Source: an archaeon (lineage in GTDB: Archaea; EX4484-52; GLR71). From it: a stretch of DNA of 56,983 nucleotides. The translations under genes were made by a program, and so were the position numbers. Shown one piece after another: positions 8,278-56,983 of this stretch (the stretch's first letter is position 1; each line of letters starts with the position of its first letter). Location: assembly GCA_013138805.1 (NCBI GenBank), contig WTCA01000030.1:1-56983 (forward strand). Reading direction: 5' to 3'. The notes under the pieces were generated by a model, which was not told the DNA's origin, ran no database searches, and saw only the letters and a list, made by a program, of their open reading frames with translations.

Positions 8278-8366
8278 TGTTATCACTTTTTAAAAATAAA
8301 AAAACATATAAAGCTGTTGTTTTATATTTAATAATATTGGTTATAATCTTTATTAAGTTTGAGATT

Positions 8367-9065: not shown

Positions 9066-9193
9066 TAAATCATTAACTTCTATTTTCAATAATTCTTTAT
9101 CGCTATTAATGCAGATGAAAATACAAAATAAAAATTAGATAAATTAAAGAAGAAAATAAGAATTTCTAAAAAATAAAAGATACATCAAAATAT

Positions 9194-9201
9194 AAAAAAA
9201 A
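9194..9201 (-). terminator. Oligo-T (T8) terminator closing the minus-strand surface-protein cluster
   Basis: The A8 run on the plus strand is T8 on the minus strand, about 33 nt after the stop at 9234. It sits in a convergent A/T-rich spacer. Confidence 0.45.
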
Positions 9202-9233
9202 GAGCCTGTTTAGGACTTTCCAATCTATTTTTA

Positions 9234-10118: not shown

Positions 10119-10184
10119 AATGATTACCTTTCGAAGGTTTTATAACATTATTTGGGTTAAGGAGAGTATATATATATTTCGGTT

Positions 10185-17094: not shown

Positions 17095-17109
17095 ACAAAT
17101 CTCCTTAAA

Positions 17110-17853: not shown

Positions 17854-17865
17854 AATATGCACCGA

Positions 17866-18414: not shown

Positions 18415-18498
18415 AGCAATCTAAAATAAATTAGTCCTGAGTGCTTATATAATTTATGAGAAACAGGGTTTTAATTCCCGATTTTTATATAATATCCA

Positions 18499-19506
18499 CT
18501 ATAATTTTCGTGTATTTCCAGCATCTTTCCTGTAAATGAAATATGCAACGACCAGTATTATTATCAATATTATCCAGAACATATTATTTCCCCTAGCGAT
18601 ATCCAACCGGGAAGCTTCTACTTTTGGGATAATCTTTGGCTTCTCTATAGATAACATAACCTGTTTTGATGATGAATTTATGTTATAAAATACTGTTGAA
18701 TTTACAAGATAGTTATCAGGAGATATCTTATCAGAATTGAATCTGGCACTCAAGACTCCAATCTCATCAGGCGATACAGATACATATCCGGAACGTCCTG
18801 TATCAACCAATGTGCCGTTTTCATAATATATTGCTACATCCGGGCTATATGATGAGAATGTTGCAGTGCCTGTATTCTGAAAATATATATCAAGAATGAC
18901 ATCATTAGCCGAACTGCCCTGCATGATATCCAATACATTGCCGCTGACAACACAAACACCATCAACCTTAAATTTTACGGTGATTGCCACCAATGCGACT
19001 ATACTTACGGAGCTGCCTGAGTCTTTGCTGATATAAGGTGTTGGCGCTATCCTGAATGCATGATAACACGGTTCTGCATCATCAGGAATTTCCAAGACAA
19101 AATTTACTTTTTTCCAGTCCGATATGGTTCCGCCCTTAGTGTTCAATAAGACATTGGCGGGTTTGAGCACATAAGGATTATCTGGAAAATATACCCATAC
19201 TGAGCTGTCCACTTCTGAAACAAGATTCACTATATCTGAATTTGCAGGTTTTTTGAAAAAATCAAGATTTGCAGGCGAAGATGTTAATTTCACAACAATC
19301 TCATCAGGCGATGATGTCACAATAAAAAATGAGCCTACAACCTTTTCTCCCCTATCCAAAGTTCCAAGATCTATAACTAATGGGGAAACACCGACCTGAA
19401 ACTCTTTTGCAGATACAGGAGCTGTCAGGATGAAAGATATGAAGATATAAATCATTAAGATATAGCCGGCTGCGCAAAATTGTTTTTTTGAAAATGAGAA
19501 TATCAT
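18499..19506 (-). CDS. 335-aa type-I surface protein (signal peptide, two beta-sandwich domains, C-terminal TM)
   Basis: Signal GYILMIYIFISFILTAPVSA/KEF. Anchor MFWIILIIILVVAYFIYRKD. The ATG at 19504-19506 is preferred over the GTG at 19515. Confidence 0.65.
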   Translation of the reverse strand: MIFSFSKKQFCAAGYILMIYIFISFILTAPVSAKEFQVGVSPLVIDLGTLDRGEKVVGSFFIVTSSPDEIVVKLTSSPANLDFFKKPANSDIVNLVSEVDSSVWVYFPDNPYVLKPANVLLNTKGGTISDWKKVNFVLEIPDDAEPCYHAFRIAPTPYISKDSGSSVSIVALVAITVKFKVDGVCVVSGNVLDIMQGSSANDVILDIYFQNTGTATFSSYSPDVAIYYENGTLVDTGRSGYVSVSPDEIGVLSARFNSDKISPDNYLVNSTVFYNINSSSKQVMLSIEKPKIIPKVEASRLDIARGNNMFWIILIIILVVAYFIYRKDAGNTRKL

Positions 19507-19515
19507 TCCTATCAC

Positions 19516-28123: not shown

Positions 28124-28207
28124 ATTATCAACCAATATTATATTTTCATTAAAGTCCTATTTATCTGTACATCATATCATAACATACTTATCATAACATA
28201 TTTTTTA

Positions 28208-31200
28208 TCACATATTCTCAAGCCTTGCTTTCAAAGACTGTATATAGGTCTCTGACATCTTGAAGACGCCCTGCTGAAGCTTAGTGCGGGCCATGTTAAG
28301 CTCAATCTCTATATCATAAGTGTTCACACCTTTCACTTTCAGAACTTCTACTTTTTTAGCAAGAGTATCAATTGATCTCTTCAAACCCATATAAGTATCA
28401 AGCTCTTCATTGCTTAATCTGCCGGTATCATGCAGAAGCGGCCTGAACTGTATGAACCAGGGCTTACCGTCATTATATTCGGGATTCTGTATAAGTCCTG
28501 CACCTACTGTAAGCTTTGCTACACGCATAGCATAGTCAGGACCATATCTCTGCTTGATACGCTGAATATCCCCATTATATTTAGTCCTGAGCTGAATCTC
28601 ATTTGCTACATTAGCTTTTATAGCACCCTTGAAATCTGCCAATACCTGAGATATCATGAACAGGCCAAGACCCCATTTTCGGAATTCACGGCAGCCGCGT
28701 TCAAGTTCAAGATAACCACCCTTACCGCCATATTTTGGAAGCAGCCTGTGCATCTCATCATAGACTATCAGAACTCTCAAAGTCTTTGCCTCAGGCCACT
28801 GGATACTGAATATGCTCTTTATAGTCCTCCTTACAAACTTATCAAGCTCAGCTGAACTTAGCTTGCTCATGACGAATACTGTAATCTCGCCAGGTTTCAT
28901 ATACTGGCGTATGTCTATTTCCGCATCAGTAAGGCTATCTGCGCTTTCAACAACAATTATATTTGTCTTGTAAGATTTTGCATTCTCTGGCTTAAGGCCG
29001 TATTTGGAATATAATTCAAGCATATGCGGATCTTTGCATGGATGTATAAACCCGCTCCACTGTGCTGTCGGGTCAAATACGACTACAGGTATGCCAAGAT
29101 CCAAAAGCTCTTCAGCTGTTGACATCGCAGTTACACTCTTTCCGGAACCTGTACCACCAGCTGCAATGGAATGCATGGTAAGGTTCTTAATGTTGATGAA
29201 TGCGTTGATATCTGTCTCTGCAATCTTTCCGACCTTTACGCTTTCTTCACCTTTCTGCGGCAGCTTTGAATAATCTGTCGGGAATATATATCTTGCAGCC
29301 TTCCTTTTCTTTTCAAGGTATGACAGATATGCTTTCCTGCCGAAATATATGCCAGGGATCAGGATCAATAATACAATATAAGTGACCCAGCTCATAAACA
29401 GCTTGCGAAGGAGAATCAGCGGCCAGGGCTGAGTGCTTACATCAAACACATCAGCAGATGATGCTGTCTTTTCAGCATTTGAATATTTCGCATTTGCATC
29501 TATGACATAACGGGTCTCTTCTGTGCTGTTAGGAATGTTTATGGATTTTACAAAGGACAATGTCTGATTCACTGCCAAAGTCTCGGAATAAGTTGTCAAT
29601 ACCTCTTCTGTCTCAAGGTTTTTTATGACATATTCCATAGTTATGTCTTCAACAGTCTTTGTCTCGCCCATGTTCTTGATAGTGACCAGCATCTTCAGGT
29701 CATCACCCGGCTTGACAACATTTGACAGAACATTGATTATGACATCCAGAAGCGCTTCTTTTTTAATTTCAACCTTGACTGTTATAGGAGTCTTGTATAT
29801 AGAATTACCTGTAGTTATTACTATATCGCCTGTATAGGTCCCAGGCATTGTAGACGGCAGGGCATAGACTGATATCTTTACATTCTCGGCAGAATTTGCA
29901 TTCACAGTGACTTCTGTTTTCTCAAGTTGGATAAGATCCCATACAAGACCATCAACACTCAACTTTGATGTTGATATCATATCCTGGTTATTCTTTATCT
30001 CAATTGAATGTATGGATCTCTCGCCGGGTGCCAAAGTGATATAGATTAATGTGGACTTGATTTCAATCGGGACTATGTTTTCGTCTAATTCCGGAGGTAT
30101 CAAAATGCTGGTGTCATCATCATCACCGCCATCATCACCAGTATCACCAGTTCCACCACCGCTGCCACCGGTTATGGCTGACGGCATCGGCGGGAATGTA
30201 GGTATGTCAATCACGCAGTCTGCAGGACATATTGAGTTGGATTCGCCATAAGCGGATTCACATATAGCATTCCCGCATATATATTGCGCTACTGCATAAG
30301 CACCGGTTACGACTGTAGTATCAACTGAAATTGTCCTTAAATTTGTATCTATAGATCCGTTTCTCCTTAACCAAAGGCTTACGCATCCTGTCTTTATGGC
30401 CCAGTTATCACAGTGATATATTGCAAGGTTGCTTACTACCACATCATCATATGGTGAATAGTCAAAAGTTATCTTCGGATTCACACCCATCAGAGTATCA
30501 TAATATATCGCTTTCTTTGGCCCTGAACCTATCAGTGATACAGGTATGTCACCAAAGACAGCCGGATTGAAAATATTTCCTGGAGGCATGCTGAAATCAT
30601 TGAAATCAAATGTCACATTCAGGACATCTACTGATACATCATACAATCTCACATATACGCTTTCATTGTAATATCCTGTCATGTTATCAGATTCAAAACT
30701 GTGCATCAGGGTCGGTGTGTCATGCTTATACATGCTGAAATTTGCGATGGTTGTTGCATTGCCAACACTTTCAAGATCATAAGAGTATCCTGCGAAGTAT
30801 GAAAGCAGATACGAATCAAAAGCTGCGGTTGTGACATTGACATTGTCTGAAAGGTCATAAGCGCTTATAACCACCTGATAAGGTCCCAGACCAGATGTGT
30901 CTGTGAACTCAAGCTCATAGAAATAATCATCTCCTGAAAATGAAATCAAGGTTGCATTATCTGCAAATATTGTCCCGTTCGGGAAAGTTATGTCGACTAA
31001 TACATTGCGCATACCTCCAAGATCTGTTGTGTTAATAAAGATGGTTACAGGCATTCCGTTGACTATGCTTGCAGGCAAAGATACTGAAAGCTGCGGCGGT
31101 GTTGCATCAGTATATACAATTGCGTCCTGTTCAGTTGCAGTTATCAAAAGGTTATCTGTTGCATAGAATGCATCTGCCACAAGATCATAAGCCACACCTG

Positions 31201-49200: not shown

Positions 49201-52200
49201 TTGACAAGACATATTCTGTCCCGTATTTTGCGCTGTCAGATTTCACAGCATTGCAGTCATCTTTTATAGTGCCGTCAAGAGGTACTGCACTGCCACGGGT
49301 GTAGTTTACACTGCCGTCCGGAGAAGACATAGATGATGCGGACAGGTTTCCTAAAAGAATGAAAGGGATTGAACCGTAAGGTGAAGGTATTGTGGAATTG
49401 TCCTTATAGTATGACGAGCCTGAAAGACCTGTGATGTAATAGTTCTGCCCAAGCGAATATGATTTTGCGTCATCACACCATTCAGCAGTTGTCATTTCAT
49501 ACAGCATGTATCCTGTACTATTGACAACAGGGCTTTGGGGATAATAAGTGTTGAATGTTGTGTTGCTCCCGAACATAGATATCCGGAAATAACCTTTACC
49601 GAATTCAAGAATTTCAGGAGCTGTACCGTTGTCTGTATCATTGAATCTGGTTGTGAAGTTCAATGCAGAGCTTCGCATGACTGTCGCGTTCCATTGAGGT
49701 GTCTCATTATATACTGCAACATTGTCTTTCTCAACAGTATAGCTATGTCCGGAAAGTTCGGTTGAACCGTCAGCGTTTGTTGCGTTGAACTTGAAGTCCC
49801 AGGTTGAGATGTTTGTATAATTATAATCATAAGTGAAGTTAGCCTGTGTCCATGATACACATGAGGGACAAACCCAGCTGTCTATCAATACATAGCTTCC
49901 TGCAGAGACCTTATGCCAGGCATAGACTGTGACATCTCTTCCAAACCTATCTCTTACCATTGCCGAGAAATTGAATTCCTCACCCCAGCCGCCGATTGTC
50001 AATGCGTCATTACCATCTATATATAATGTGGAGTTATCCAGAAGAGGTGTGTAATCATAGACTTTTACATTGAAATAAAGGTTTTGAGATTCCCGGAAAA
50101 GTTTTCCTGTCACCCAGGTATAGCTTAATTTATCTACGCTTGCATTGACATAAGGATCTGATGTAGCGTCTGCGTAAGATGATATGCTTATATCTCTTGC
50201 AGAGTCTACAAATGATGCCCGGTCTGATGTATCAATTGAATAGTTGCTCCAGAGTAAATTGTATGTGTCAGCAAATGTGTAGTTCTGCCATACTGTATGA
50301 ATCATGCCTGAATCATCTGATATGTTGACTGATGCCTGGCCGATTGTAAGATTGTAGCCTGTCCAGTTATATCTTATATAAAAGTCAATCCCAGTCAGCA
50401 TCTCATATCTTGCGTCGGCAGGTTTTGTGAAACCATAATTTTCTGTTGCTGAACATGATGAAGAGGATTCACAGCCAATAGCTGTGTCATTTGATATTGT
50501 CGTGTATGCTGTAGTATTCCTTATACCTTCTGCAACAAAGATATATGAACCTTCAGCTGTGCAGTTAGCTGTGAAATTTACATATGATGATGCATAAGGG
50601 CTTATGTCTGATAACTGCCAGGTTATCTTTCGTGAGGTATCATTCCAGGTGCCGGAATCATAGACCTGTGTGATGTTGCATTCCCCCGGGATATCAAGAG
50701 TCACATTCCAGTCACTGCTGGTTGAGTTGTCGCCGATGTTTGTGACTTTCAGAGAATAGTTGTAAGAGACATTCAACTGTGAACTTCTTGGCTCAACCCA
50801 GGGATATGCAGGCTGCTGGAGTGTCTCAATATTAAATTCAAGATGGGACTCTTCGGTGTAATTGAATGTCCGGACAGGGTGCGTATCATATTCAACAAAG
50901 TTCTTATTTTCCCAGGTCGTGTTATGATATAGTGTACCTGCCTGACTTGTGCTGACCGGGGATTTTGCCTGGTATGTAAGAACTGCATATTTATTTACAG
51001 GTATTGTTCCAAGCTCCCAGGTGACGATATTGTTTATAAGATCTGTTGTCGCTGAGATAAGTTCTATGTCTGAACCATACTCGTTTGTCATGATACCCGG
51101 GTTTGCAGGGGTCCAGCCGGTCGATATTGTCTCTTTTATTATGGTGCTTCCTGAAGATGCTGTGCATCCCTTGTTGTATATGGTCAGCTGTGAATCAAAG
51201 ACTGTATCAGTCCCTATGTTTGACGGTGTCTCTCTTGTGATTTCAAGTATGGCTATTGAATTGCTCTCATTTATCATAGAGGTAGAATTTCTTGTCTTTT
51301 CAGAGACAGGATAGGTATAGGCAACGGTTGCATTGATATAGACGATTTCTGCAGCTGAGGAGGAGGAGGTAAGGTTAAAGCTGACAGTATAATTGCCGGG
51401 GGATGTCGTGTTTACCAATTGATATGCCGGCGAATAGCTCCATCCTGCCGGTGTTTCAAGAGATACATTATATTCTATTGTATCTGTGAATGGATTCGTG
51501 ATTGTGACATTGTACTGCTCAGTTGTCTGGTTGCACATCCAGTCAAGAACACGGCTTGAGACTGATACATTCTTGAATATGAAAGGTTCTGTACGGTCGT
51601 ATGAAGTTGAGCCGTTGACAAGATATGCGTTGAGATCATAGTCATCGGAAAGCCATGAAGATGTGTTGATATCTGTGATGTTAGCAAGATAGATTGAATC
51701 GGCAGAAATGCTTATGGACTGGGAAGATGAATTTATTATGGCGCCGGTGCTGTTGGTTATGTTAAGCCATAAAGTTCCTTCAAACTGATTGTTTTGGGAA
51801 TTGGCTATCCTTACAGATACATTGAAAAAACCGTCTCCTGTCTCCATCCCTGTTGTCTCTGTGCTGTTGATTGATGCCTGTAAGTTTTGGATATGGACAG
51901 TCTCATTATAATATGCCTGAAGGTTCATGGCAGTCAGATTGATGCCGTTTGAGCCTATATTTGTTATGTTGAATGTGCAGTAGCCGGTGCCGTTTGCGTT
52001 AAGCTGTCGTTCCAGAACCGGAATCCTGTCTGTGCTGTCTGAAGTCAGGTTGATAGTGTAGCTGTGCAATATGTCAGTCCAGACTGTGCCATTGTAGGAC
52101 AGGACTCTTAACATTACATCTTTTTGTCCTGCTGTGACATTTGTATAATTGATATTAAGATATGCAGCCCGGTAATCTCCTGAGTCGCAGGCAAAATATG

Positions 52201-55200
52201 CGATTGCGCTGTCGCCTGAAGCAAGGATGATGGGGAGAGATACACCAGGATTGCTGTCTTCAATCAGCTTGTATATAGATATAGTGTCATCTATTGTATC
52301 GTTTCTCAGTTCAGAATCCATTGTGGCGTTAACTGTGATGGTAAGATTATATGCGCCGGAAGAGTTTGGTGTTATGTCCCAGTGAGCATCTTTTGTGTTT
52401 CCTGAAAGGATTGAGGCAATATACACGACATTGCTGTATGCAGTGCCGTTCCAGACTGTCCAGCCGGAAGGAACTGTTAATGTTGCGTTTATGTCTGTAG
52501 CATCGCCCTGCAATGCCATAAAGGTTGCGTTGAGACCGAAGGTTCGGTTCTCAAAGATTTCAGCAGGACTCTTTACTGAAGTTGCATCAATGACGGGTTC
52601 ACAGGATTCTGTATTGACATCAACTATGAAATTGTCTGAGATATTGTAATTATAATAACTGTCAAGAGATGTGTTGATGAAAGCGCGCCATAATCGTGTG
52701 CCGTTCTGGAATGTACAGTCAGGGATGAAATCAAAGTTTGCATGGCCTGTCGTATTTGTATTGTTTGTGCCGATGGTCTGCCAGATAGTATCTGCAGCAT
52801 CTCTTGTGACTTCAAAAGTGACTGTAGCTGCAGTCGTGTTGACATAATCCTGACGGATAAGGTCGTTTACACGGACTGAAAAGTTTGCAGACTGAGGCGG
52901 TAAGTAATGAGCATCAGATTCGTTTCCTGACGCGTATTCTACAGACACATTATCTTTGGTGACTGTCACCTTATGAGTTGAGGCGTCAAAATCTGAATAT
53001 GTACCGTTCATGTCAAACCTGTAATACCATGTGCCTATCTCGGACGATGTGAAATTACGATACCAATACTTTAAAGAGTCAACACAGTTGATGCAGTCTG
53101 TCGGTGTCTGGTTTATGCAAGTCGCACCATCACATGCAGTTGTCGGTGGAGGTGTCTGGGAAAGCATCAAAGAAACGGTATATACATCTGTAGGATGACC
53201 GCTGCTCGCTATGATTGAAAAGTTCCAGTCAGAATAACCCCAGCCGTGTGATAAGGGGATGCCGTCGGGATTTTCAAGCTTGAGCTTTTCCAAAAGATAG
53301 AACAGACTATCCCTTCCGAAAGAGGAGCCGTCCTTAAGCGTGCCATTATCATAATAGTATGTCTTGTTTGAATACATTGTGGTGTTATACCAGCCCATGT
53401 TGGTCTGCAAGGTTGTCGGAAGATCGCAGGTGTATGCGTTTGCACCCACAGGACTTACATCAGTACAGTTATAGCCTGAAGCAGCACTGTAATTGGCATA
53501 AAATCGTACTGTTGTCGTCAGAGGATCGCCGCAATCATCTGTGGTTGAGCCAAGGAACGGGATAGTGGCTTCCTGGGTATAATTGATTGAACCGTCAGGT
53601 TTTTGAAGGTCAAGAATTATGTCACCATAGATTGTGAAATTGAGATCAGCGGTTGTATTATATATATAGCAGGTTGATGTGGATTCTGCAACATAAGCTT
53701 TCCAAAGACGGTCGCCGACCTCATATTTAGGCAAGCATCCAGGTTCAAAAGAATACTGGGAATATCCGGTACTGTTTGTTGTGTTGCCGTATACAGGACC
53801 CCAGACACCGGGCGATAATGTCATTGTGAAGTTTACCATAAGATCAGGCAATACAGAACCGTTAAGATCGCTGACTCTTAATGAGAATTGGTTTGTCTGA
53901 GTACCGCTCCTGTTAGCTGTGGAATCTATGCCATATATGTAATCAAACAAGATTGTGTCCTGGGTCAATGTGAAATTGTTTTCTGATGTCTCAGCAGTTG
54001 TGTTTGTATTATTCATAGCATTTGTCATGTTGAATTTCCAGAACCAGGTATCCTGCAGTGAACAGTCAAAAGTCTGGGTGAAATTGAAATCCTGCCACTG
54101 GCCGATTAAAGTATAATTGCTTGAGTTCATCTGGATCCATGGACCGGACGGACTGGAACCTCTCCAAAGATATAATTCGGCTGTTGAATTTGTGTCAAAG
54201 ATGCTTATATTGAATGTTCTCTGCATACCCCAGCCTTCTGTTATAAGGTCAACTGACGCGTTCTCTGACTGAGGCACATTTGTCCAGGTCGTCATGTTGA
54301 ATGTTTCTGAAAAATTGTACTTGTAACATGAATCTGAGTCAGGTACAAAACCAAGCCATTCCTGTTTCTCTGTCGAATATGCAGAGTCTGGTGTGATATC
54401 ATAAAGGACATAACCGGTTGAGTTTGTTGTGTTTGTGCCAAGAGTATAATATTGTGTGCCCAAACCCTGCTTTGTAATGTTGATGCTGACTGAGGCTGAG
54501 GTTGATGAAAGATAAGTTGAGTTGTCTATATCATACACTCTCAACTGTATTGTGGAAGGATGATTCAATGTTGCGTTGGTCTCATTTCCTGCGATGTAGT
54601 CTATACGGATATTGCTCTCCTCAAGAACAAACTGCTCATCGATAGTGTAATCTGCGCCGGATGTTGTATAGTTGTTGCCTTCAGTGTCTGTCGCGTTGAA
54701 CTTGAATTTTTTTGTCTCAATATCTGAACAGCCATAAGTAGTGTTCCATGACAAGGTCGTATTTGAACAGGAAACGCACTGCTGGCTGGAACCTATCTCG
54801 ACCCAGTCCTCTGTTCCAAAAGTTGCCTGCCATAATCTGACAGTCACTGTGTCTCCAGTATTATCTGTTACATTCACTGTGAAATTTCTCAATGCAGACC
54901 AGCCTTCTGTCTTTGGTGTGACTTCGGCAGAATCCAGTTTTGGTGTTGATTTTATTTTTAATGCATCAGTTTCAGAAGATGTGTCATTATTATAGTAGCC
55001 TTTTGATGCGATGATTGTCACATTATAATTGCCTACAAGTTTTCCTGAAGTTGGCCAAAGACAGGTATATGGATTTTCAGTTGAGGAAGAATAACAGTAA
55101 TAGGATGTGCTGGCAGTTGTTATGTTGAAAGTTACATTTGTATCAGAAACTGCAGTCAGGCAGTCATCTGTCACATTTCCGCTGAAGGATACATCTGTAC

Positions 55201-56983
55201 CGGTCTCATATTCCTGCAAAGATGTAGGAGATATGTATGTTGCGTTAAGGTCGCCGATGATGTTAATAACAAGTGTGTTATAGCCGGTCGTCGTGTTGTC
55301 TGAATATGCCTGGGCACCGTTCACTGTGACATTCCAGTATGCAGGACCAACACTATAATTGCAGTTGGGATTGAAGCTTCGGATATAATCTGTGCCGTTC
55401 AATGATTCTTCCGTGACATTCTCAACATAACTGCTGCCGTTGAAGACATAGAAATGAATCTCGTCAAGTGTGATGTTTGGAGTTGATGAATCAAGAGTGT
55501 CCTGATCCAAGACAAGGTCCCAGACCTTTGATGTAAGATTGATTGTTGTCTGCGGAGCTGAGGTCCTGTTGACTGAAGAGCCGTTGTTTGTGAAAAAACG
55601 GAGATCTATATGATTTTTTGTAACATTGAACCATTGCTGGGAAAGAGTGTCATTTGAATATCCTGTTGAAGATGTTGCGTTGAACCTGAAATACCAGATG
55701 TTTCCTGCAATCGAATCGTTTGTGAAATATTTTGTTGTAGAAAATGTTGTGTTTTCACAAGTGGTGCAGGTTGTCTGGTTCTCAATCCACCAGACACCGG
55801 AACTGTTTGACATCCAAAGATAGACTGTAATGGACTCATTATCTATGCCTGTCACATTTACTGTGAAATTGTATGGGGACTGACCCCATGGCACTTCTGT
55901 AGCTGACGGAGATTTTGAAGCACTGTCTAATTGTATTGGGCTTCTCAGGAAAAAATGGCTCTCATTCAAAAGGAAACCGTCATTGTAACCGGTCTTATTG
56001 CTTGTAACAGTTACATTATACCAGCCAAGAGGAAATCCGGAATCAGTGTCAATGTTGCAGGAACCTGAGGTGGCAGTGCAGTTTCTTTCAAAAGCGTCAT
56101 GGATCATCTTTATGATTATTGTGGTATCGTCAGTTATTATCTCCTGACAGTCATCTTCTATTGCAGCAGTAAAAGATATTGCTGCATCTCGTGTAAAGTT
56201 TGATGCGCCGTCCGGGTTGACAAGAGTGTTTGAAAGGCTGCCAATCAATGTGAAGTTTATAGAGTCTGTGACATTATCTTTAACATCGCTGTCTTCATAG
56301 GTGCCGCCTTTCCAAGCATGTTTTGTCGGACCCAGATAATATTTGCCTTCATCAGCACACCAGTCACTGTTTGTCATAGTCCGGTTTATCCAGCCGTCAT
56401 CGCTTGATAAAGGTGGTGGGGACGGTTCAAAACCCTCTATATCATATATAGTTATCCATATCTTACTGTCTGAATTATTAGCATATGTGCCATTGTCCCT
56501 GTCATAAGACCTTATGGAAAATACAGTCGTATCGCTTCTGTTTATTGTGGCATCATGCAGAGGTTCCTGGATAACAGAATCAATATCATCTTTCTCAACA
56601 GTGTAACTGTATCCGGCGAGAGTGGAGGAACTGTCTGCATTTGTGGCATTGAACTTGAAGTCCCATGTTGACATATTATCTGCAACATAATCATAGGTGA
56701 AGTTTGCCTGTGTCCATGATGCGCATGATGTGCAGACCCAGCTGTCTATCAAGACATAGCTTCCTGCTGGTTTTTTGTGCCAGGCATAGACTGTGACATC
56801 TCTTCCGAACCTATCTTTTACTATTGCGGAGAAATTGAATTCCTCGCCCCAGCCGCCGATTGTCAAGGCGTCATTGCCATCTATATATAATGTGGAATTG
56901 TCCAGAAGAGGTGCGTAATCATATACTTTGACATTGAAGTAAAGATCCTGAGGTTCCTGGAAAAGTTTTCCTGTACGCCAGGT
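28208..56983 (-). CDS. Giant surface protein (at least 9,591 aa, 5'-truncated by the window edge) with a C-terminal TM helix and cytoplasmic HerA/DUF87-type ATPase
   Basis: One uninterrupted frame runs from 56983 to the TGA at 28208-28210. The track M at 56866 is an in-frame TTG. Thirty-nine further sense codons (TWRTGKLFQEPQDLYFNVKVYDYAPLLDNSTLYIDGNDA) reach the window edge without a stop or signal peptide. See the sub-features for architecture. Confidence 0.85.
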   Translation of the reverse strand, partial: TWRTGKLFQEPQDLYFNVKVYDYAPLLDNSTLYIDGNDALTIGGWGEEFNFSAIVKDRFGRDVTVYAWHKKPAGSYVLIDSWVCTSCASWTQANFTYDYVADNMSTWDFKFNATNADSSSTLAGYSYTVEKDDIDSVIQEPLHDATINRSDTTVFSIRSYDRDNGTYANNSDSKIWITIYDIEGFEPSPPPLSSDDGWINRTMTNSDWCADEGKYYLGPTKHAWKGGTYEDSDVKDNVTDSINFTLIGSLSNTLVNPDGASNFTRDAAISFTAAIEDDCQEIITDDTTIIIKMIHDAFERNCTATSGSCNIDTDSGFPLGWYNVTVTSNKTGYNDGFLLNESHFFLRSPIQLDSASKSPSATEVPWGQSPYNFTVNVTGIDNESITVYLWMSNSSGVWWIENQTTCTTCENTTFSTTKYFTNDSIAGNIWYFRFNATSSTGYSNDTLSQQWFNVTKNHIDLRFFTNNGSSVNRTSAPQTTINLTSKVWDLVLDQDTLDSSTPNITLDEIHFYVFNGSSYVENVTEESLNGTDYIRSFNPNCNYSVGPAYWNVTVNGAQAYSDNTTTGYNTLVINIIGDLNATYISPTSLQEYETGTDVSFSGNVTDDCLTAVSDTNVTFNITTASTSYYCYSSSTENPYTCLWPTSGKLVGNYNVTIIASKGYYNNDTSSETDALKIKSTPKLDSAEVTPKTEGWSALRNFTVNVTDNTGDTVTVRLWQATFGTEDWVEIGSSQQCVSCSNTTLSWNTTYGCSDIETKKFKFNATDTEGNNYTTSGADYTIDEQFVLEESNIRIDYIAGNETNATLNHPSTIQLRVYDIDNSTYLSSTSASVSINITKQGLGTQYYTLGTNTTNSTGYVLYDITPDSAYSTEKQEWLGFVPDSDSCYKYNFSETFNMTTWTNVPQSENASVDLITEGWGMQRTFNISIFDTNSTAELYLWRGSSPSGPWIQMNSSNYTLIGQWQDFNFTQTFDCSLQDTWFWKFNMTNAMNNTNTTAETSENNFTLTQDTILFDYIYGIDSTANRSGTQTNQFSLRVSDLNGSVLPDLMVNFTMTLSPGVWGPVYGNTTNSTGYSQYSFEPGCLPKYEVGDRLWKAYVAESTSTCYIYNTTADLNFTIYGDIILDLQKPDGSINYTQEATIPFLGSTTDDCGDPLTTTVRFYANYSAASGYNCTDVSPVGANAYTCDLPTTLQTNMGWYNTTMYSNKTYYYDNGTLKDGSSFGRDSLFYLLEKLKLENPDGIPLSHGWGYSDWNFSIIASSGHPTDVYTVSLMLSQTPPPTTACDGATCINQTPTDCINCVDSLKYWYRNFTSSEIGTWYYRFDMNGTYSDFDASTHKVTVTKDNVSVEYASGNESDAHYLPPQSANFSVRVNDLIRQDYVNTTAATVTFEVTRDAADTIWQTIGTNNTNTTGHANFDFIPDCTFQNGTRLWRAFINTSLDSYYNYNISDNFIVDVNTESCEPVIDATSVKSPAEIFENRTFGLNATFMALQGDATDINATLTVPSGWTVWNGTAYSNVVYIASILSGNTKDAHWDITPNSSGAYNLTITVNATMDSELRNDTIDDTISIYKLIEDSNPGVSLPIILASGDSAIAYFACDSGDYRAAYLNINYTNVTAGQKDVMLRVLSYNGTVWTDILHSYTINLTSDSTDRIPVLERQLNANGTGYCTFNITNIGSNGINLTAMNLQAYYNETVHIQNLQASINSTETTGMETGDGFFNVSVRIANSQNNQFEGTLWLNITNSTGAIINSSSQSISISADSIYLANITDINTSSWLSDDYDLNAYLVNGSTSYDRTEPFIFKNVSVSSRVLDWMCNQTTEQYNVTITNPFTDTIEYNVSLETPAGWSYSPAYQLVNTTSPGNYTVSFNLTSSSSAAEIVYINATVAYTYPVSEKTRNSTSMINESNSIAILEITRETPSNIGTDTVFDSQLTIYNKGCTASSGSTIIKETISTGWTPANPGIMTNEYGSDIELISATTDLINNIVTWELGTIPVNKYAVLTYQAKSPVSTSQAGTLYHNTTWENKNFVEYDTHPVRTFNYTEESHLEFNIETLQQPAYPWVEPRSSQLNVSYNYSLKVTNIGDNSTSSDWNVTLDIPGECNITQVYDSGTWNDTSRKITWQLSDISPYASSYVNFTANCTAEGSYIFVAEGIRNTTAYTTISNDTAIGCESSSSCSATENYGFTKPADARYEMLTGIDFYIRYNWTGYNLTIGQASVNISDDSGMIHTVWQNYTFADTYNLLWSNYSIDTSDRASFVDSARDISISSYADATSDPYVNASVDKLSYTWVTGKLFRESQNLYFNVKVYDYTPLLDNSTLYIDGNDALTIGGWGEEFNFSAMVRDRFGRDVTVYAWHKVSAGSYVLIDSWVCPSCVSWTQANFTYDYNYTNISTWDFKFNATNADGSTELSGHSYTVEKDNVAVYNETPQWNATVMRSSALNFTTRFNDTDNGTAPEILEFGKGYFRISMFGSNTTFNTYYPQSPVVNSTGYMLYEMTTAEWCDDAKSYSLGQNYYITGLSGSSYYKDNSTIPSPYGSIPFILLGNLSASSMSSPDGSVNYTRGSAVPLDGTIKDDCNAVKSDSAKYGTEYVLSNGATNYSVIASLATDSWNSPGNAPLGWYNVTMISYSEGTEFGVYVNSTDILVNAFYLSTVPQSDYVDVSPLSDGWSASPVNFTINVTDEDNNTVIVYLYLKKGAGSWNLYENWTCYDCKDNQTVFNRTFTQDEVDDWYYLFNASDISGNINTSLQTGSFTIEKDDISFSDVVPVAVDINRTAGSANLSLRIYDDDNNTYTTNLSSSSPDEVQFWITNDTAASFWREETTDTKNTTHYYLDFNPGCDYVAGQQDWKVNTSSDYFKTNDTEGFFTLNVNIYGTLAATQTFPDTSTNYTQDDIIPVNGTLSDDCGTDVTGASVYFNLTRNANTFRCPGAGYATDEGGGVYSCNFDTVGISGGYYNVTMYAEKPYNHPDNDSRVDAFFLTAPIYLSDETVNSADSGWGSERNFSIIVSHYNGVNLTLWHSKGASGGPYSVVNNTFLSGPVDTQVNIFKNYTCSDISTWFYKFNATDSYYEGNATTTFHDYTLTTDDILLGQSYIGNASYVNRSDTLGQVSVLLAHTVNDTVRNLLAGNPQATVYLNVTNDNADNFTTFNSNTTNSSGYANFNFLPDCSYSVGEQKWQTYTDGDTCYSDQVSSNYTIYIQGDLRPNVTFPKDLEQYQNSIENVTINITVLDECNQSIAGASLNLTLNNTDTGFASYCTAVIDLGSGNYSCEWNTTDTGVGRYDVIAKAYNVSYYNNGTITEADSFRVIPPINNVPNLTNQTMLQEADGWGAIFDFSVEVYDKDYDTVNVSFWISSDNSTWVFEDSKNCTSCNGWNQLNFSYEGFSCSDQQVWYYKFNATDYENDTELSSSNFTVEKDNVTVSYFAGGGNATSVNRTGSGTTHFILQVFDSDNVSTPTLPQGRNGTFWVSYNDTTYDGGYFNQTNSTGHMNYIFKPSCSPKYSIGPQNWTGGIKDDSCYFDTNITQPLIVYVIGEMNDTLVSPSGEDFFDDDNVTVRINLTQECDVTDLVDDATVSFNLSHDTYYTACSVVNEGSGYYNCTWNVTGAPGGWYNITLNSTRQYLNPLFKTYLNSFFHQINPVLSGASADKSSVVWGNNPAKSQVTFTVNVTDDDDTVDIYLWESMGSATGPWTLADQTSCSDCINTTKTLTRLYSAAGDIDTWYWKINASDTDSLSDEQPVYDFNVTKRSIYINYVLGNSTDINRVGTNSTVLTVQAFDNYTDSALGAGMQGYFWVTTNGTTTGIWGTSLADTTDPSGNLNITFNPGCSAPLYLTGKQDWKAGIIGGTNYFDENSTLYELDINGTLSNNLEVPVPTALYQKGTYITMYGTVSDDCTATTGTYVNESDTIKFDITSGANSYVCSSFTDLGNGTYNCTWDSSVAFLGIHNITMNSTKPYYDMSSIFVEDALRLGESPELGETFVDVELEGWGYNYTFKVEFRDIEPDDTDNISFWKAYNAAGPWYFVDSEEKFNAVAWINITFNKIFDCSDLTQGPYLYYKFNVTDSFGFTNESVIKNITLEKDDIEVIYVSGAGVSIDREDADSEYFKVRINDTDLGSIVGASINATVWKTYNEISYDSGNTTVTDADGYVNYSFNPDCGYSASTDQYWLIGTTDNICYKDKNLTVIRQFAIVGQLKNSLYLPVQDSVFNVTDSIFVNISTGTDCPAEGNQAGASIALNLTHSGSSTYQCSPVNDESTGIYNCTWDSTGKLEGNYTVNMTSTLSDYYPNTTWWTDRFWLENLNTTYDNESVTPSSGGWSRNFTFNISVDDPESDNVTCTLFTNTTGVWVDKGQSIVMGGTGNCSILVWDFTPQDMGTASYKFQIEDAESSNTFNTTVFSGPTVTKPSVNVTFYSANDTSVNRSAGSETLIVRAYDLENKSYINSSNVTFWITTDGTTYDSGSLLQTNSTGHASYIFSPTCTPYYETENQLWLAGITDDNYLYSNTTENYTITIYGQMTNLVTSPSGEKYLRGEENVTIRANITSDCSSQETMNTTYVNFTMTSQYTETQYACTTEIYNESTGYYNCTFDTAGKEPRGYNITMNSTQPFYITEITTDVYSEGTESFWIETRPTLAASDVTPSSGGWGEKHYFTVNATDYDLDTLIVKAWFRNESDGYVPANSLTNNTISGVNQYVTFSPKTFTNVYADTTWYYKFNVTASDGDGYTNETIEKTFYIEKDTVSIEYISGNNSIVNRSAQAYDPDYNITLITRVWDVDKDPDAIIPFKRSKFYLTNDTFSNYIPYPFLPTSYINSNITGYQTYTFKPDCTYAVGPQKWKSGLLDNFEYNSTNSTEFYFNITTTPLVAMFDYPTGGLTFEKGVDNILLRGNVTDDCGPVSDANVNISVVQGGTTYALCYPAGDETDGWYNCTIANTTHNTWPVGLYNITIKADKTYYNDSNVFVVENAFRLVTRPVLSNPTSTSTQGGSIGGWGEFWTFTVDIMDNDGDSSNVSLWINRTGSWELLDSVIWSQGDPTITFAGKTFSCAGAADLGVKQYKFNVSDDYNYTDNITSTMTIEKDDVDAIPVSTGGQNVDRNGTATILLKTQILDTDRGYTSVESGVNGKIWVTVNWSNLSSFDDGYALQTDALGYLSYDFDINCSYTTGEHAWEGGTSGSVCYKDSLYPTEYFDSYGKLYTSVESPVNGSSYGTGTPVFMRFNVTTDCSVEGRIEAESKGIELQSPSASWYSCSPINDETGSDAGWYNCTWDSTLKEPGNWTIKTNASNSTYYTAIDTLTEYFELLNNPPAYSNLNVTPNSSAWGATYTFSLNFTDPDADTVNCSLYTTTNGGASWIFRNMTTLASPAVCNLTVSDFNCGDIGTDNYFKFELDDSYNTINTTNMSGPNMTIDDIKIIYMDGNNKDVNRSYGMQQLKVYINDTVRGMPVSPDIDVYFNITTDGTTYILEGFNTTSGGNATYDFTPSCSYDVGDQKWYAEVNDSCYTPKNTTEYNLTVYGTLYNSLASPLGVEYFLDDNVTLRANVTSDCVAEVMNESNVSFRYFRTGYSDTCIINNESTGYYNCTFNNTGMPPGYYDFEVNSSQSFYNNDSEVFQYAYGISSFWIETLPYLSLPSPNPSTGGWGETFYFTTNATDRDNDLMTVRLWIKKTSSGTWIFKNSTTAQGINVTVNLSAKFISGNDMDDWEFKFNVTADDAWDEYETSNVSFTVEADDVRIEILSGNNSIVNRSDLPGNSNPNVTFSVSVYDDDKDLLITSPINTRFYVTKDGSSFETLDTISNNTGYFFVTLDPDCTYSLGPQMWKASSVIGGSWYKLQNSSDIEFNITAIPLLTTLTEPDGITRVRGVDDILIRGNVTDDCGLVPGASSEFVVEQSAIPYFTCPPDNTLYDEADGYYNCTIPAASTTGWFTGDYDINFTASKLYYNSSDIYRKDSAFRLVTVPEISNPSITTITSVGLSDYGWGESWTFEVNLLDEDQDNVNVYLWVNLTGDWELLNSTVCTNCGSIQTISFSGHGFSCSDIGTRGFKFNASDNYNYTNETSGTFNIIRDDTITYYGGMGDLSQIGREGDDIEVFSVRIFDADHNVYVGSSIPNATGKIFVTTDGSSYDLGTQNQTDSSGYLYYSFNPDCNYSVGGHKWKGGSNGDACYKDSNSSDRDTDIIGQLKSSIADPAEGSNILVGAIVNLNVSIYDDCTVQMSEASITHEAVYQDIVFEDITPVTNNSIGYYNSSWDTLFHQGGNWSFRINASKTDYYSNSTIFSNWTYLNNTPPIVENFTVSPDVEGWGRVYTYEAQISDTQQDNITCDLFVSTDNGALWILKNSTFIETAPAGDANCTLSVMDFDCAEIGTDNLYKFQIYDGTNKFNTSQMSGPNLTADTVSIEYIFGNDSVVNRSGAQTALFTARVLDLDNASMPVMTDSSVTFWTTYDNPTYDTGTVILTNSTGYANYNFNPGCSSPTYKIGPQKWKAGVTDSCYAAINLSLEYNTTIMGDLINTIENPPFSSEYLRGENVTLSSTITPTITDDCNLGLENINNSFTFYNEDNVSNYSCISEEIVGGYYECTRNTTDMAARWYDTEIISWEQYYNNGTLLKANHIFVTTLPDLTDETAITDVGGWGETFYFSVNVTDEDWDNVTLNLYTKKYTDGAWGAPKNTTTLYNPQNEYAIISWNNPDCANIDTWEYYFEASDTHAEVNTTTPHNFTIDKNDVTIQYATGDNSYVWRNGTHNTTLMLDILDYDRGNISVGTGTSARFWVTTDANDTSSWDIGKDTVTLDSSIAYYFMQQFPDGGQKCNYTVGIQKWKGGIVNDVCYKDKNSTEYDLSVNSTLLLNITNVYEQGYLRGDLIPLISTVSDDCGPVENVTISYALLNFPNEYFCNKQSNAGWNESGGDYNCTWDSSSKPYKWYNVTADVSKEFFADNESSGDERFFLGTTPILELVSVSPKFGGWGENHQFSVRLTSLDLATNNVSLWKSFDNSSWDLVNWQLVGTPINQWVYFNERFTSNDYLTPPSGLNYYKIISESVFGFSSETEVYNFTLDYDNITISIDPASNSTVRRLGVTTAFLNVRIYDTDYEVYQNDTNATIWVTKDGNIFTYNESCSSSDGYCGIDYDPQCDSDVGAQKWKIAVDDPSYQIINSSNVSLSVIGQLYTNPIDPQENVIFNRNTTVSLNTTVTDDCSNPVLDAVVSWYNSTPIQIGSGYDTSWNIPIYYTKGPDTITVNATRADYDIGTNTTGIYVYGWSMISSILPLNLSSYLAGYNIYVQCNVIDANTTENITGYNVSFYKNDVFQDSNLTDSNGTAVWIWSTASENYGWYNISCSISSDDSLYYTPSTYYENTTVRINRSPVITEIVLSNPDIYRNNTFSPYDTNITVTIYDALIGPAENADVWFYNSTGFMDNCTTDVNGNCYITYDAPENITPQGYVVYINSTKAGLEDSITNQTTIGIYGFLYINITGPANGSSWSKAEILNLTSYIENENSYVDTATVDWYIDSGFVATGQNTTYPLVSQIPGPKTLVSNATRPYYITGTDNISININGLVDVIWWEPLNGSQQAYPGSFDVKCLVKDNNSGASVEGYSVDFWYLNGSDYVYNGTYVTNSSGLAGYVWYPDSKGTIDFMCNITDNATVFYSPNIGNATATIIVEDINAPSIANMTIIPNSTLEANLNTTNITAIITDDIGVYSAFAMITLPNGSIVNVTMANTVNDTYSTLYMPPIGGNYSVDIVASDSPPENNTNVTYAGSFSVWGKIDMTGAQTDSFTAFSITQISGESFVLTVNATNNGPATAYNVSISVDEIPIGTLTYNTTNYDCGNLSIGEMCTRAFLVTVPAKTGPQLITVYNTIWWDNPDRTMNSTVGSTIVVVASNPVLEVIPDYIQNQTPHGETTLIDTVTVSASGNDAITNILLDKVGNTLAIDCPLCNLTISQPSWGYLPAGSNFTSDISIDIPYGQDAGYYWTWVSAESDNAPDDSVFVNATVPLDLSWERVPSTFGTILALVNTSTTQIGTITASNNGNSERNIQVLLSGNGTSFVTREPLAFSLGIGASSNVTVNYSIPSSSAQDMYYVMVYLSDATGNPPFSVTDFWLNVTDLPPVISNVSIDPMGYESGTGYTNISAEVTDNVAVSQVWLNSTKPNGTVFIDYFAMNGTSVYLNYSENETGIHKIRICANDTASLVICTPEYNVTVAVNTTIITETNITNATIYGVTLYSGLNITINFTTLNAGYSRALDVNTTITYPALWNVSPSQFAMGNIFKTPYNGNTQLSIPKDIIGDYYINFTSNWTNYDNSTDNLTTAIKVTIGSNPVLNVTEDPVMFIIENGNNDSKNLTLESLGNDIAEDIEFNCTSGIGCADFNISFNPSSIVNLTKGNSTNFTITAYVPEIYSSGIYYMTYTISTSKTNTSANITVIIPENMTWMHNPVQISKVVIANTTGEFGSVRVSNIGNMYLTVSAQSTNTTLFGVNASMLDLPIGNYSDVMINYTAPELTSLQTYTAYFRTTNLTAFPQTHDTLLNITIHPLYLDVISPTSSSPVLNVSKNDNMTVIFNLTYAFVPLDDNVTWQINLTNAGTSVSVNITSVNYSVASGLWTVNFTAPDVISGVAYDLVADAFYATDNLLITATEQDAIVYTDATPPQLSVSLPASIVNGMPVTIFINTTDLGGMRNVLVDITFPNGTIFADNATLISFSGDDYFYELEFTDTSGLGPYQVVISAYDLSDNVNVTTAAFDSYLLSYFAGYSYDLESVGNATTIANFSMYKHDTPTLMHSFESDNMTGYYNESVYVRLYDVSVDVLNVTFDFNDFSMPPGNIFNPAVFGDIPVSLIGSGPKKAIYYDTLMGVNPKITFDYSPYDDVVVSNLAIYHCDNWAIKTGCVSLWLRRNGSIDTNLRTISVDTTVVTGAYAVAQYICGNAICESAYGESNSICPADCVIDIPTFPPMPSAITGGSGGGTGDTGDDGGDDDDTSILIPPELDENIVPIEIKSTLIYITLAPGERSIHSIEIKNNQDMISTSKLSVDGLVWDLIQLEKTEVTVNANSAENVKISVYALPSTMPGTYTGDIVITTGNSIYKTPITVKVEIKKEALLDVIINVLSNVVKPGDDLKMLVTIKNMGETKTVEDITMEYVIKNLETEEVLTTYSETLAVNQTLSFVKSINIPNSTEETRYVIDANAKYSNAEKTASSADVFDVSTQPWPLILLRKLFMSWVTYIVLLILIPGIYFGRKAYLSYLEKKRKAARYIFPTDYSKLPQKGEESVKVGKIAETDINAFINIKNLTMHSIAAGGTGSGKSVTAMSTAEELLDLGIPVVVFDPTAQWSGFIHPCKDPHMLELYSKYGLKPENAKSYKTNIIVVESADSLTDAEIDIRQYMKPGEITVFVMSKLSSAELDKFVRRTIKSIFSIQWPEAKTLRVLIVYDEMHRLLPKYGGKGGYLELERGCREFRKWGLGLFMISQVLADFKGAIKANVANEIQLRTKYNGDIQRIKQRYGPDYAMRVAKLTVGAGLIQNPEYNDGKPWFIQFRPLLHDTGRLSNEELDTYMGLKRSIDTLAKKVEVLKVKGVNTYDIEIELNMARTKLQQGVFKMSETYIQSLKARLENM
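28211..29337 (-). other. Cytoplasmic HerA/DUF87-like (FtsK-HerA superfamily) P-loop ATPase domain of the giant protein
   Basis: Walker A HSIAAGGTGSGKSV (GGTGSGKS = 29135-29158). Walker B LRVLIVYDEMH (LIVYDEMH = 28748-28771). The downstream motif CREFRKWGLGLFMISQVLADF...NVANEIQLRT matches the HerA pattern EGRKfGlgl.lisQrP...c.t.i.lrl. Confidence 0.75.
29338..29400 (-). other. Single transmembrane helix of the giant protein
   Basis: LFMSWVTYIVLLILIPGIYFG is followed by the positive stop-transfer RKAYLSYLEKKRKAARY. This implies N-out/C-in topology. Confidence 0.75.
30110..30290 (-). other. Membrane-proximal Cys-rich motif plus Gly/Asp acidic linker
   Basis: YICGNAICESAYGESNSICPADCV (about 30213-30284) is followed by PTFPPMPSAITGGSGGGTGDTGDDGGDDDDTS (about 30110-30200). 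Confidence 0.7.
35200..50130 (-). repeat. Array B: 15 tandem three-domain supermodules (~330 aa, ~990 nt each) of the giant protein
   Basis: The conserved G-W-G/S anchor (plus-strand ccccaNcc) recurs at about 49988, 48980, 47996, 47003, 46031, 45029, 44045, 43063, 42032, 41048, 40094, 39083, 38117, 37127 and 36134. Spacings are 954-1031 nt. Confidence 0.85.
49716..50119 (-). repeat. Copy 2 of a ~400-nt high-identity intragenic duplication (partner 56580-56983)
   Basis: The offset is exactly 6,864 nt (2,288 codons), for example ccgccgattgtcaa at 49990 and 56854. By eye about 85-90% nucleotide identity, far above the other inter-module comparisons. Confidence 0.85.
50545..51255 (-). other. Two DUF11-like ('conserved repeat domain') segments in the non-modular insert of the giant protein
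   Basis: First segment: ITRETPSNIGTDTVFDSQLTIYNKGCTASSGSTIIKETISTGWTP...NIVTWELGTIPVNKYAVLTYQAKS. Second segment: LKVTNIGDNSTSSDWNVTLDIPGECNITQV...KITWQLSDISPYASSYVNFTANCTAEG. Both fit the DUF11 pattern (..v.N.G...a..v.v.D.lp.g......W.lg.l..g.s..l.y). Confidence 0.55.
52600..56983 (-). repeat. Array A: 5 (or more) supermodules of the same type, continuing past the window edge
   Basis: G-W-G/S anchors lie at about 56852, 55889, 54902, 54233 and 53242. The 54902-to-54233 module is short (669 nt) and lacks the third domain. Confidence 0.8.
56580..56983 (-). repeat. Copy 1 of the ~400-nt high-identity intragenic duplication (partner 49716-50119), truncated by the window edge
   Basis: Protein TWRTGKLFQEPQDLYFNVKVYDYAPLLDNSTLYIDGNDALTIGGWGEEFNFSAIVKDRFGRDVTVYAWHK... 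versus TWVTGKLFRESQNLYFNVKVYDYTPLLDNSTLYIDGNDALTIGGWGEEFNFSAMVRDRFGRDVTVYAWHK... Confidence 0.85.

Follow-up and report, generated by a model that had tools for sequence, protein, structure and literature searches.

Contig WTCA01000030.1 of the archaeal assembly GCA_013138805.1 (GTDB lineage EX4484-52; GLR71) carries a minus-strand reading frame which is open for 28.8 kb up to the very edge of the sequence. This raises the question of whether such a frame belongs to one gene, and if so, what kind of protein it encodes. The stretch analyzed here (positions 1 to 56,983 of the forward strand) is referred to as the window. As judged from the sequence, the frame is the 3′ part of one real gene and did not arise from misassembly. 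We consider it very likely that this gene codes for a membrane-anchored giant surface protein of the SPEARE type from a DPANN archaeon, the 3′ 28.8 kb of which are covered by the window. The family has already been described. The protein reported here is the longest member that we found, and its predicted length exceeds that of any published member (9,409 amino acids, aa).

A reading frame that continues beyond the window

The in-window part of the giant gene occupies 28208..56983 on the minus strand. When read from base 56983, the first stop is at 28208-28210, so that 9,591 sense codons are open, as the preliminary description of this DNA had stated. The window sequence is free of N. Residues are numbered from the first codon at the window edge (residue 1 at 56983). 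The in-window part of the protein has a mass of 1.06 MDa and an isoelectric point of 4.1.

There is no methionine among the first 60 codons from the window edge. Residues 1-133 (56585..56983, minus strand) form a conserved segment, of which a second copy is found at residues 2289-2421 (49721..50119, minus strand). The two copies show 84-87% protein sequence identity; on the DNA level, the identity is ∼88% over the first ∼400 nucleotides (nt) and then fades. Compared to the equivalent segment in the related loci examined (designated by L and a number), the first copy is 44-87% identical, and it is the best-conserved piece of the ectodomain. That the edge sequence is homologous to an internal segment had been recognized before, and the internal copy is located where it had been placed. 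The TTG at 56866 is thus an internal codon: the codons upstream of it match residues 2289-2421, and the frames of relatives stay open farther upstream. The list of open reading frames (ORFs) begins at this TTG because it requires a start codon. The preliminary description had also reported a non-modular insert of ∼2.5 kb. While ∼2.2-2.5 kb (residues ∼1555-2288) are indeed unlike the 329-residue supermodule which dominates the protein, this region is not an insertion but a conserved and duplicated beta-sandwich block.

A C-terminal ATPase module that points to the SPEARE family

The features which identify the protein family are a transmembrane (TM) helix and a HerA/FtsK-type ATPase at the C-terminus, on which the preliminary description had been silent. 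All coordinates in this section refer to the minus strand. A single TM helix is found at residues 9197-9215 (29339..29395), and the AlphaFold2 (AF2) model has a helix across this region. It is directly followed by a stretch conforming to the positive-inside rule, RKAYLSYLEKKRKAARY (29288-29338), and then by a cytoplasmic P-loop ATPase of the HerA/FtsK superfamily (residues ∼9245-9522, 28418..29251). The ATPase carries a Walker A motif (GGTGSGKS, 29135-29158), a Walker B motif (LIVYDEMH, 28748-28771), and an Arg-finger-type motif (CREFRKWGLG, 28664-28693). The protein ends with a tail (residues 9523-9591, 28211..28417) which is modeled as helical or coiled coil; the same terminal coiled-coil feature has been reported for SVXNc_0300 (PMC10266531).

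The catalytic residues (Walker A Lys, Walker B Asp-Glu, and R-E-F-R-K-W-G) are invariant across 25 homologs. Sequence comparison of the ATPase returned HerA chains in PDB (E about 1e-7) and Pfam DUF87 (E = 2.5e-8). The AF2 model, built with 25 homologs, has a pLDDT (predicted local distance difference test) of 88 and a pTM (predicted template modeling score) of 0.81. When this model was submitted to Foldseek, the best match was HerA from Sulfolobus (4d2i, E = 1e-13), followed by SIR2-HerA and HerA-NurA, and then by TcpA and FtsK. An ASCE fold, Walker A and B motifs, and a conserved Arg after sensor-1 are all present, as is characteristic of the FtsK-HerA superfamily, and the tail is probably an active member of it. 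In NCBIfam, the tail matched HerA, CedD, TraC, and TraD, in each case far below the cut-off. An assignment as HerA proper was rejected (HerA_Thermprot with 42.7 bits at a cut-off of 800; a model devoid of a HAS barrel; surface-protein genes as neighbors), as was one as VirB4/TraC proper (TraC-F-type with 20.5 bits at a cut-off of 567; top structures being HerA, not VirB4). No type IV secretion genes were recognized near the giant gene in the window.

The name SPEARE was introduced for very long proteins of nanohaloarchaea, which are mostly extracytoplasmic, have a TM helix near the C-terminus, and include one or more laminin-G domains among their extracellular domains (Hamm et al., 2019; PMC6642349). 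In that study, the conserved cytoplasmic region was interpreted as a type III restriction enzyme, similar sequences were reported from Aenigmarchaeota and other DPANN archaea, and a short form of 717 aa was described as well. A re-analysis of SVXNc_0300 (9,409 aa) and BNXNv_0298 (8,880 aa) yielded a layout with a signal peptide, about 75 immunoglobulin (Ig)-like domains, a TM helix, a VirB4/TraG-like ATPase, and a coiled coil; protease and endonuclease assignments were rejected, a gene for a second VirB4/TraG-family ATPase was reported directly downstream of the giant gene, and the 9,409 aa protein was called the largest of any cultivated archaeon (Reva et al., 2023; PMC10266531). Other published members are NAR1_1133 (5,998 aa) and AOV94740.1 from Ca. 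Nanopetramus SG9 (8,553 aa) (PMC6642349, PMC10266531).

Over residues 8988-9590, the protein can be aligned from end to end with the C-terminal part of BNXNv_0298 (38% identity, E = 5e-131); the same residues also match BNXNv_0297 (36% identity, E = 4e-134). The latter, retrieved as homolog P0120, is encoded right after BNXNv_0298 in the complete Nanohalovita genome. In common with SPEARE proteins, the protein is mostly extracytoplasmic with a single TM helix on the C-terminal side, and it has the homologous intracellular domain and an ectodomain of tandem Ig-like domains. An exhaustive profile search with the C-terminal module returned 633 cluster representatives at E ≤ 1e-30. Among the best 150 of these, 144 were newly returned; they carry the module at or near the C-terminus of proteins with 583-7,878 aa (median about 2,200 aa). 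Of these proteins, 25 reach 4,000 aa or more, and none reaches 9,000 aa.

Predicted full length of the gene

In all related loci with enough upstream sequence, the conserved block is located directly before the conserved segment. This block-plus-segment pair occurs twice, about 2,060-2,290 residues apart, in L004, L005, L019 (with L028 having identical coordinates), L027, and L032. As the window starts exactly at a copy of the segment, another block is expected just upstream.

Homologous genes extend upstream of the corresponding position by between 1,621 and more than 3,333 codons. L003, which is 85% identical to residues 1-475, has 2,001 more open codons upstream, and L005 has 1,621 more until its contig ends. 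True N-termini with a hydrophobic signal-anchor were found 2,541 (L007), 2,619 (L032), 2,952 (L027), 2,964 (L029), 3,142 (L013), and 3,204 aa (L033) before the first segment. In L004, the closest relative with a double unit, the N-terminus is about 2,946 aa upstream if a single in-frame TAG is read through. That this stop marks the real gene start, 158 aa before the segment, was considered and rejected, since it is a single TAG in a conserved domain and the same frame is open over the preceding 2,858 aa. The relatives thus place the start outside the window, as had been claimed. By this comparison, the gene is predicted to extend about 7.6-9.6 kb past the window edge, coding for ∼2,500-3,200 aa with beta-sandwich domains and an N-terminal signal-anchor, where previously only several more kb had been anticipated. 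The predicted total is about 12,100-12,800 aa, the best single estimate being close to 12,500 aa.

Extension of the contig by exact look-up of the neighboring proteins returned the same organism only in short Logan contigs of SRR10375098 (8.8 and 5.9 kb), the 767 aa neighbor had no entry, and the 5′ end was not reached. The nearest matches were 82-85% at best among GTDB representatives and 60% at best in the JGI metagenome collection.

The N-terminal signal-anchors of L007, L027, L029, L032, and L004 and that of P0268 have the pattern K-(K)-S-E/Q-x-G-Q-x-Q-L-L-x-S in common, which is followed by a hydrophobic helix. This motif loosely resembles a class III (prepilin-type) signal, so the N-terminus might either be cut by a prepilin peptidase or persist as a second membrane anchor.

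Organization of the ectodomain

The ectodomain comprises ∼9,190 aa in the window and contains 20 supermodules of ∼329 aa, which are arranged in two blocks (all coordinates on the minus strand). Block A (residues 43-1554, 52322..56857) consists of five copies with an Ig-like beta-sandwich fold, the third being truncated. Block B (residues 2331-7229, 35297..49993) consists of fifteen supermodules with a start-to-start spacing of 317-344 aa. Between them is the conserved beta-sandwich block (residues ∼1555-2288, 50120..52321), which is all-beta with NEW3/MG-like domains. The membrane-proximal region (residues 7230-8899, 30287..35296) is built from a different set of Ig-like/NEW3 beta-sandwiches and shows weak similarity to the equivalent part of BNXNv_0298. 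It is followed by a Cys-rich knot (YICGNAICES...CPADC) with a Gly/Asp/Pro-rich linker (residues 8900-8965, 30089..30286) and by two beta-sandwich domains within the conserved C-terminal module (residues 8966-9190, 29414..30088). In total, the window part of the ectodomain has roughly 85-90 Ig-like/MG-like beta-sandwiches (about 87).

The ectodomain is acidic and rich in Thr, Ser, and Asn. It contains 550 N-X-S/T sequons compared to 182 ± 11 expected from its composition, and there is one in the cytoplasmic part. This split supports the predicted topology as well as heavy N-glycosylation. Pfam searches returned only weak matches (Big_1, Big_7, NEW3, PITM). The block-plus-segment unit was modeled by AlphaFold as an all-beta structure (pLDDT 76), which Foldseek associated only with generic strings of multiple MG/Ig-like beta-sandwiches (template modeling scores 0.1-0.17). 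As these structural matches are generic, no specific function can be read from them.

Downstream partners and compact relatives

The giant gene is followed on the same strand by a gene for a cytoplasmic coiled-coil protein of 767 aa (25832..28135), which has no Walker A motif, and by one for a signal-bearing protein of 1,964 aa with NEW3/MG2 beta-sandwich domains (19932..25826). The 3′ flank of the giant gene has no terminator-like hairpin according to a bacterial-type promoter/terminator scan, the models of which are not archaeal. Pfam and NCBIfam searches with the partner genes and the small neighbors gave nothing significant.

Both partners have counterparts in compact systems. On long contigs, the compact form (722-730 aa) begins with a Sec signal, after which come a Cys-rich knot and a P/G linker, then two beta-sandwiches, and finally a TM helix with the ATPase. 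The 767 aa protein is homologous to the product of the gene right after this ATPase gene (525/527 aa, E = 3e-26) and also to that of a 518 aa gene of Nanohalovita (E = 2e-13), which there follows the second ATPase. The C-terminal ∼300 aa of the 1,964 aa protein, including a TM helix, are homologous to the product of the second downstream gene of compact systems (306/340 aa, E = 1e-14). This partner homology indicates that a three-gene core is common to the giant and the compact versions, two members of which have been inflated by extracellular domains in the window.

The compact proteins correspond exactly to the last part of the giant protein (knot, linker, two beta-sandwiches, TM helix, and ATPase), and the junction at residues 8900-8965 is the same as the Cys-rich plus P/G linker region after the signal peptide of the 722-730 aa members. 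One translated frame might therefore give rise to two products, a cleaved giant adhesin and a separate membrane ATPase of the compact type. Peptides from the extracytoplasmic part and from the TM/cytoplasmic part were detected in different size fractions by Hamm et al. (PMC6642349), a result which may be a preparation artefact according to its authors. The fusion, however, is retained across hundreds of representatives of all lengths, and the giant protein has neither an internal start nor a signal peptide at this junction. We thus regard two separate products as unlikely and treat the giant as one membrane-anchored protein.

A conserved cluster surrounds the 722-728 aa ATPase proteins in L022 (1-11013) and L025 (1725-15553). 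Upstream, it has genes for a large beta-helix protein and for four small signal-bearing proteins (about 72/171-180/194-196/46-49/303-312 aa); downstream, the two conserved partners are followed by a ParA/CbiA-like ATPase. In both loci, a Peptidase_A24 gene is found a few kb from the cluster. By its gene content, this compact cluster looks like an uncharacterized archaeal surface or secretion system in its own right.

Beyond the two partners, the window contains eight further minus-strand genes (9234..19515), coding for proteins of 338, 182, 250, 813, 831, 225, 448, and 294 aa. They are tightly packed, all have an N-terminal signal or a TM helix, and most are devoid of a family match. The 831 aa protein and the beta-helix protein encoded in the compact cluster have domains in common (E = 1e-24). 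These genes probably form a co-transcribed surface-protein cluster and may belong to the giant system.

Organism and genome context

The remaining neighbors include LeuA, PyrB/PyrI, Sua5, and a PIN-ATPase-KH protein. On this contig (6487-8286, 1-1536, and 3417-4955, minus strand), a typical archaeal PIN-ATPase-KH gene is accompanied by those for LeuA (2-isopropylmalate/homocitrate synthase family) and for both chains of aspartate carbamoyltransferase. The closest named homolog of the PIN-ATPase-KH protein is from a "DPANN group archaeon" (78%), followed by those from Nanoarchaeota, Nanohaloarchaeota, Altiarchaeales, and Aenigmatarchaeota. The best named relatives of the giant protein are from metagenome-assembled genomes (MAGs) labeled Aenigmatarchaeota or Nanohaloarchaea. 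As the named homologs of both proteins are all from DPANN archaea, the window is attributed to this group. With LeuA and PyrBI, this DPANN genome retains some amino acid and pyrimidine biosynthesis.

At 4952-5011 (minus strand), a region abutting the annotated start of the PyrB ORF matches the Rfam tRNA model with 30.1 bits (gathering threshold 29), covering model positions 8-63 of 71, while ARAGORN found no tRNA anywhere in the window. Possible explanations are a tRNA fragment, an atypical or split tRNA of DPANN type, and a false-positive match.

Proposed function

We infer that the protein functions in host contact and in ATP-driven translocation. The ectodomain would be exported co-translationally and N-glycosylated. 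In a fully extended state, it would reach several hundred nanometers and could bind to the host cell surface. An Ig-like domain measures ∼4 nm, which was used to estimate the extended length from the ∼87 domains in the window. The cytoplasmic ATPase would oligomerize, presumably into a hexamer as its structural relatives do. Together with the 767 aa coiled-coil protein and the 1,964 aa membrane protein, it would drive DNA or proteins through the symbiont membrane where the two cells are in contact, or it might instead power assembly of the apparatus itself. For the published giants, a secretion "straw" (Reva et al.; PMC10266531) and an invasion tool (Hamm et al.; PMC6642349) have been proposed. 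The earlier suggestion that genes of this size mark host-interaction machinery in small-genome symbionts agrees with this published hallmark of the family and with the DPANN origin of the homologs.

Several observations weigh against the assignment as a SPEARE protein with a role in host contact, or against the predicted length. No laminin-G family was detected in the 9,591 window residues (E ≤ 0.01) or within the first 2,300-2,950 aa from the N-terminus in three relatives (E ≤ 0.001), so that this SPEARE feature is lacking in the window part. Protease, toxin, beta-propeller, and intein domains were likewise absent from the window part and from the N-terminal regions of the three relatives. 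With laminin-G, protease, toxin, and beta-propeller domains lacking, a generic adhesin-like fold is the sole ground for host binding. A second ATPase is not encoded directly downstream, as the 767 aa protein found there has no Walker A motif. The genome, with LeuA and PyrBI kept, is less reduced than those of classic obligate symbionts. The total length is an extrapolation from relatives which are 44-87% identical in the edge segment. Finally, L004 has its TAG (nt 9524-9526) within a conserved domain of an otherwise open frame of ∼5,480 codons, at a position where the window codes for Tyr. A sequencing error, a nonsense mutation of recent origin, and codon recoding are all conceivable. A further published domain feature of SPEARE proteins was also undetected here; it is probably not defining, since Reva et al. 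(2023; PMC10266531) argue that the founding members do not have it either.

The same observations bear on whether the protein might be a structural or protective component of the envelope, S-layer-like or halomucin-like, with no host-specific role and with an ATPase that only exports or anchors it. Beyond the ATPase, the protein is built of beta-sandwich domains alone, and enzyme, lectin, and toxin domains are lacking; its extreme sequon density is as found in archaeal S-layer glycoproteins, and the retained LeuA and PyrBI would also fit. Compact members occur in non-DPANN MAGs labeled Heimdallarchaeaceae and Hydrothermarchaeaceae, yet the family is concentrated in DPANN lineages. No known S-layer design has a single C-terminal TM helix fused to an ATPase of the hexameric translocase type, and cultured nanohaloarchaea link the family to host contact, albeit on non-genetic grounds (PMC6642349, PMC10266531). 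We therefore consider a mere coat function to be quite unlikely and prefer a role in host contact and translocation.

If all elements are taken together, a more far-reaching proposal can be made, which we put forward only tentatively and consider unlikely to hold in full. The giant protein and its two partners might constitute an archaeal machine for trans-envelope translocation which is self-contained and differs from both the Ced system and bacterial type IV secretion. A hexamer of the HerA-like tails would bundle six megadalton ectodomains into a conduit or tether of several hundred nanometers, through which DNA, nucleotides, or proteins could pass between host and symbiont. The compact forms of 550-730 aa, which occur also in the Heimdallarchaeaceae and Hydrothermarchaeaceae MAGs, would represent the ancestral core, and the protein described here, with about 12,500 aa, would be the largest family member and among the largest archaeal proteins.

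Physical contact to a host is required by DPANN archaea, but the contact molecules are largely unknown, and SPEARE-type giants are the main candidates. The three-gene core, which codes for an ATPase-bearing, a coiled-coil, and a membrane protein, is a tractable target for structural and biochemical studies on symbiont-host exchange.

Integrity of the gene

In principle, several shorter paralogous genes for surface proteins could have been collapsed or chimerically joined into this frame during assembly. There is much internal repetition in the gene, and the window stops inside a segment which recurs 6.9 kb downstream with ∼88% DNA identity, a kind of repeat that breaks short-read assemblies. 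Most relatives are also interrupted by contig ends, and the database entries are fragments. The paralogous modules inside the protein, however, are only 22-47% identical; the longest exact DNA repeat within the gene has 29 nt, and no 31-mer is repeated.

In addition, the frame is colinear with four assemblies obtained independently from other samples, which together cover its entire in-window part: L005 (residues 1-3544, 51%), L014 (residues 517-3232, 75%), L013 (residues 915-5656, 41%), and L021 (residues ∼5569-9591). L021 (ENA ZHAN22-2) is an independent scaffold which is colinear with window positions 40278-19967 at 87-94% DNA sequence identity; its scaffold gaps (100 N each) separate pieces that are all open in a single frame. 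The ratio of nonsynonymous to synonymous substitution rates (dN/dS) between the window and L021 is 0.17, 0.17, and 0.08 over 1,878, 1,351, and 623 codons, a comparison that spans the 3′ ∼40% of the ORF. When analyzed in bins of 100 aa, positional counterparts in the relatives are ∼30-87% identical, which is above the similarity between modules within the protein. As positional orthologs are closer to each other than internal paralogs, the array is conserved position by position. The ectodomain is thus an old array rather than a fast-evolving repeat. An assembly artefact, which the preliminary description had named as what would refute its reading, is unsupported as far as the sequence can tell, and we consider it very unlikely. 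That the frame is a decaying or unexpressed remnant, open by chance, has a negligible probability despite the in-frame TAG in the close relative L004, given that 9,591 stop-free codons in DNA of 40% GC would not last without selection, that dN/dS is 0.08-0.17, and that the catalytic motifs are invariant.

In databases and in the output of gene callers, the giant family is represented nearly only by fragments (P0001, P0121-P0127). A database search with the block-plus-segment unit returned seven fragments, the longest having at most 1,524 aa. For L021, the gene caller reported only the last 591 aa and placed spurious small ORFs on the opposite strand over the other 10 kb of the giant gene. Due to such fragmentary calling, surveys of protein length in DPANN archaea will undercount these genes. 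This is a practical problem, as short-read assemblies and protein databases alike contain such genes in systematically broken or mis-called form.

Comparison with known systems

With the HerA, FtsK, VirB4-VirD4 (TraG, TcpA), and CedB translocases, the ATPase shares the ASCE P-loop fold, the Walker motifs, and the Arg-finger-type motif, the best structural matches being HerA 4d2i, SIR2-HerA, HerA-NurA, TcpA 6o1w, and FtsK 2ius. It differs from these translocases in that it scores far below the curated cut-offs, is devoid of a HAS barrel or a VirB4 N-terminal domain, and is tethered via its own TM helix to a megadalton ectodomain.

The protein resembles halomucin from Haloquadratum (about 9,000 aa) and the giant proteins of Omnitrophota (West-Roberts et al., 2023; 10.1101/2023.11.21.568195) in its extreme length and its repetitive extracellular build, as well as in the role proposed for it, which is one in cell-cell interaction or in protection. 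No homology to these was detected, and the studies consulted here do not report a C-terminal module with a TM helix plus ATPase for them; the Omnitrophota giants have many enzymatic domains (10.1101/2023.11.21.568195), unlike the window protein.

The compact members (about 550 and 722-730 aa, annotated as "DUF87/DUF853 domain-containing", from Aenigmatarchaeota and other archaea) are 44-58% identical in the C-terminal module and have the same two downstream genes. They include BNXNv_0297 and probably also the 717 aa SPEARE protein from Lake Tyrrell. In contrast to the window protein, they have no giant ectodomain and start with a plain Sec signal peptide before the Cys-rich knot, and their cluster, unlike the window locus, includes a ParA-like ATPase and small signal-bearing proteins.

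The closest parallel is to the SPEARE giants NAR1_1133, AOV94740.1, BNXNv_0298, and SVXNc_0300, which share the Ig-like ectodomain, the single TM helix, the P-loop ATPase, the coiled coil, a homologous coiled-coil gene downstream, and an origin from DPANN organisms. In contrast to the nanohaloarchaeal SPEARE proteins, the window protein is from a non-halophilic lineage, related to MAGs labeled Aenigmatarchaeota or Nanohaloarchaea. It is longer: the window alone accounts for at least 9,591 aa, and the predicted length is about 12,500 aa, so that the family surpasses its published size record outside of the halophiles. Apart from the generic fold, its ectodomain is unrelated in sequence, with a 329 aa supermodule not shared by those proteins. 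What makes this locus distinctive is its size, the duplicated macro-unit of ∼2,290 aa, and its position as a bridge between the giant and the compact versions.

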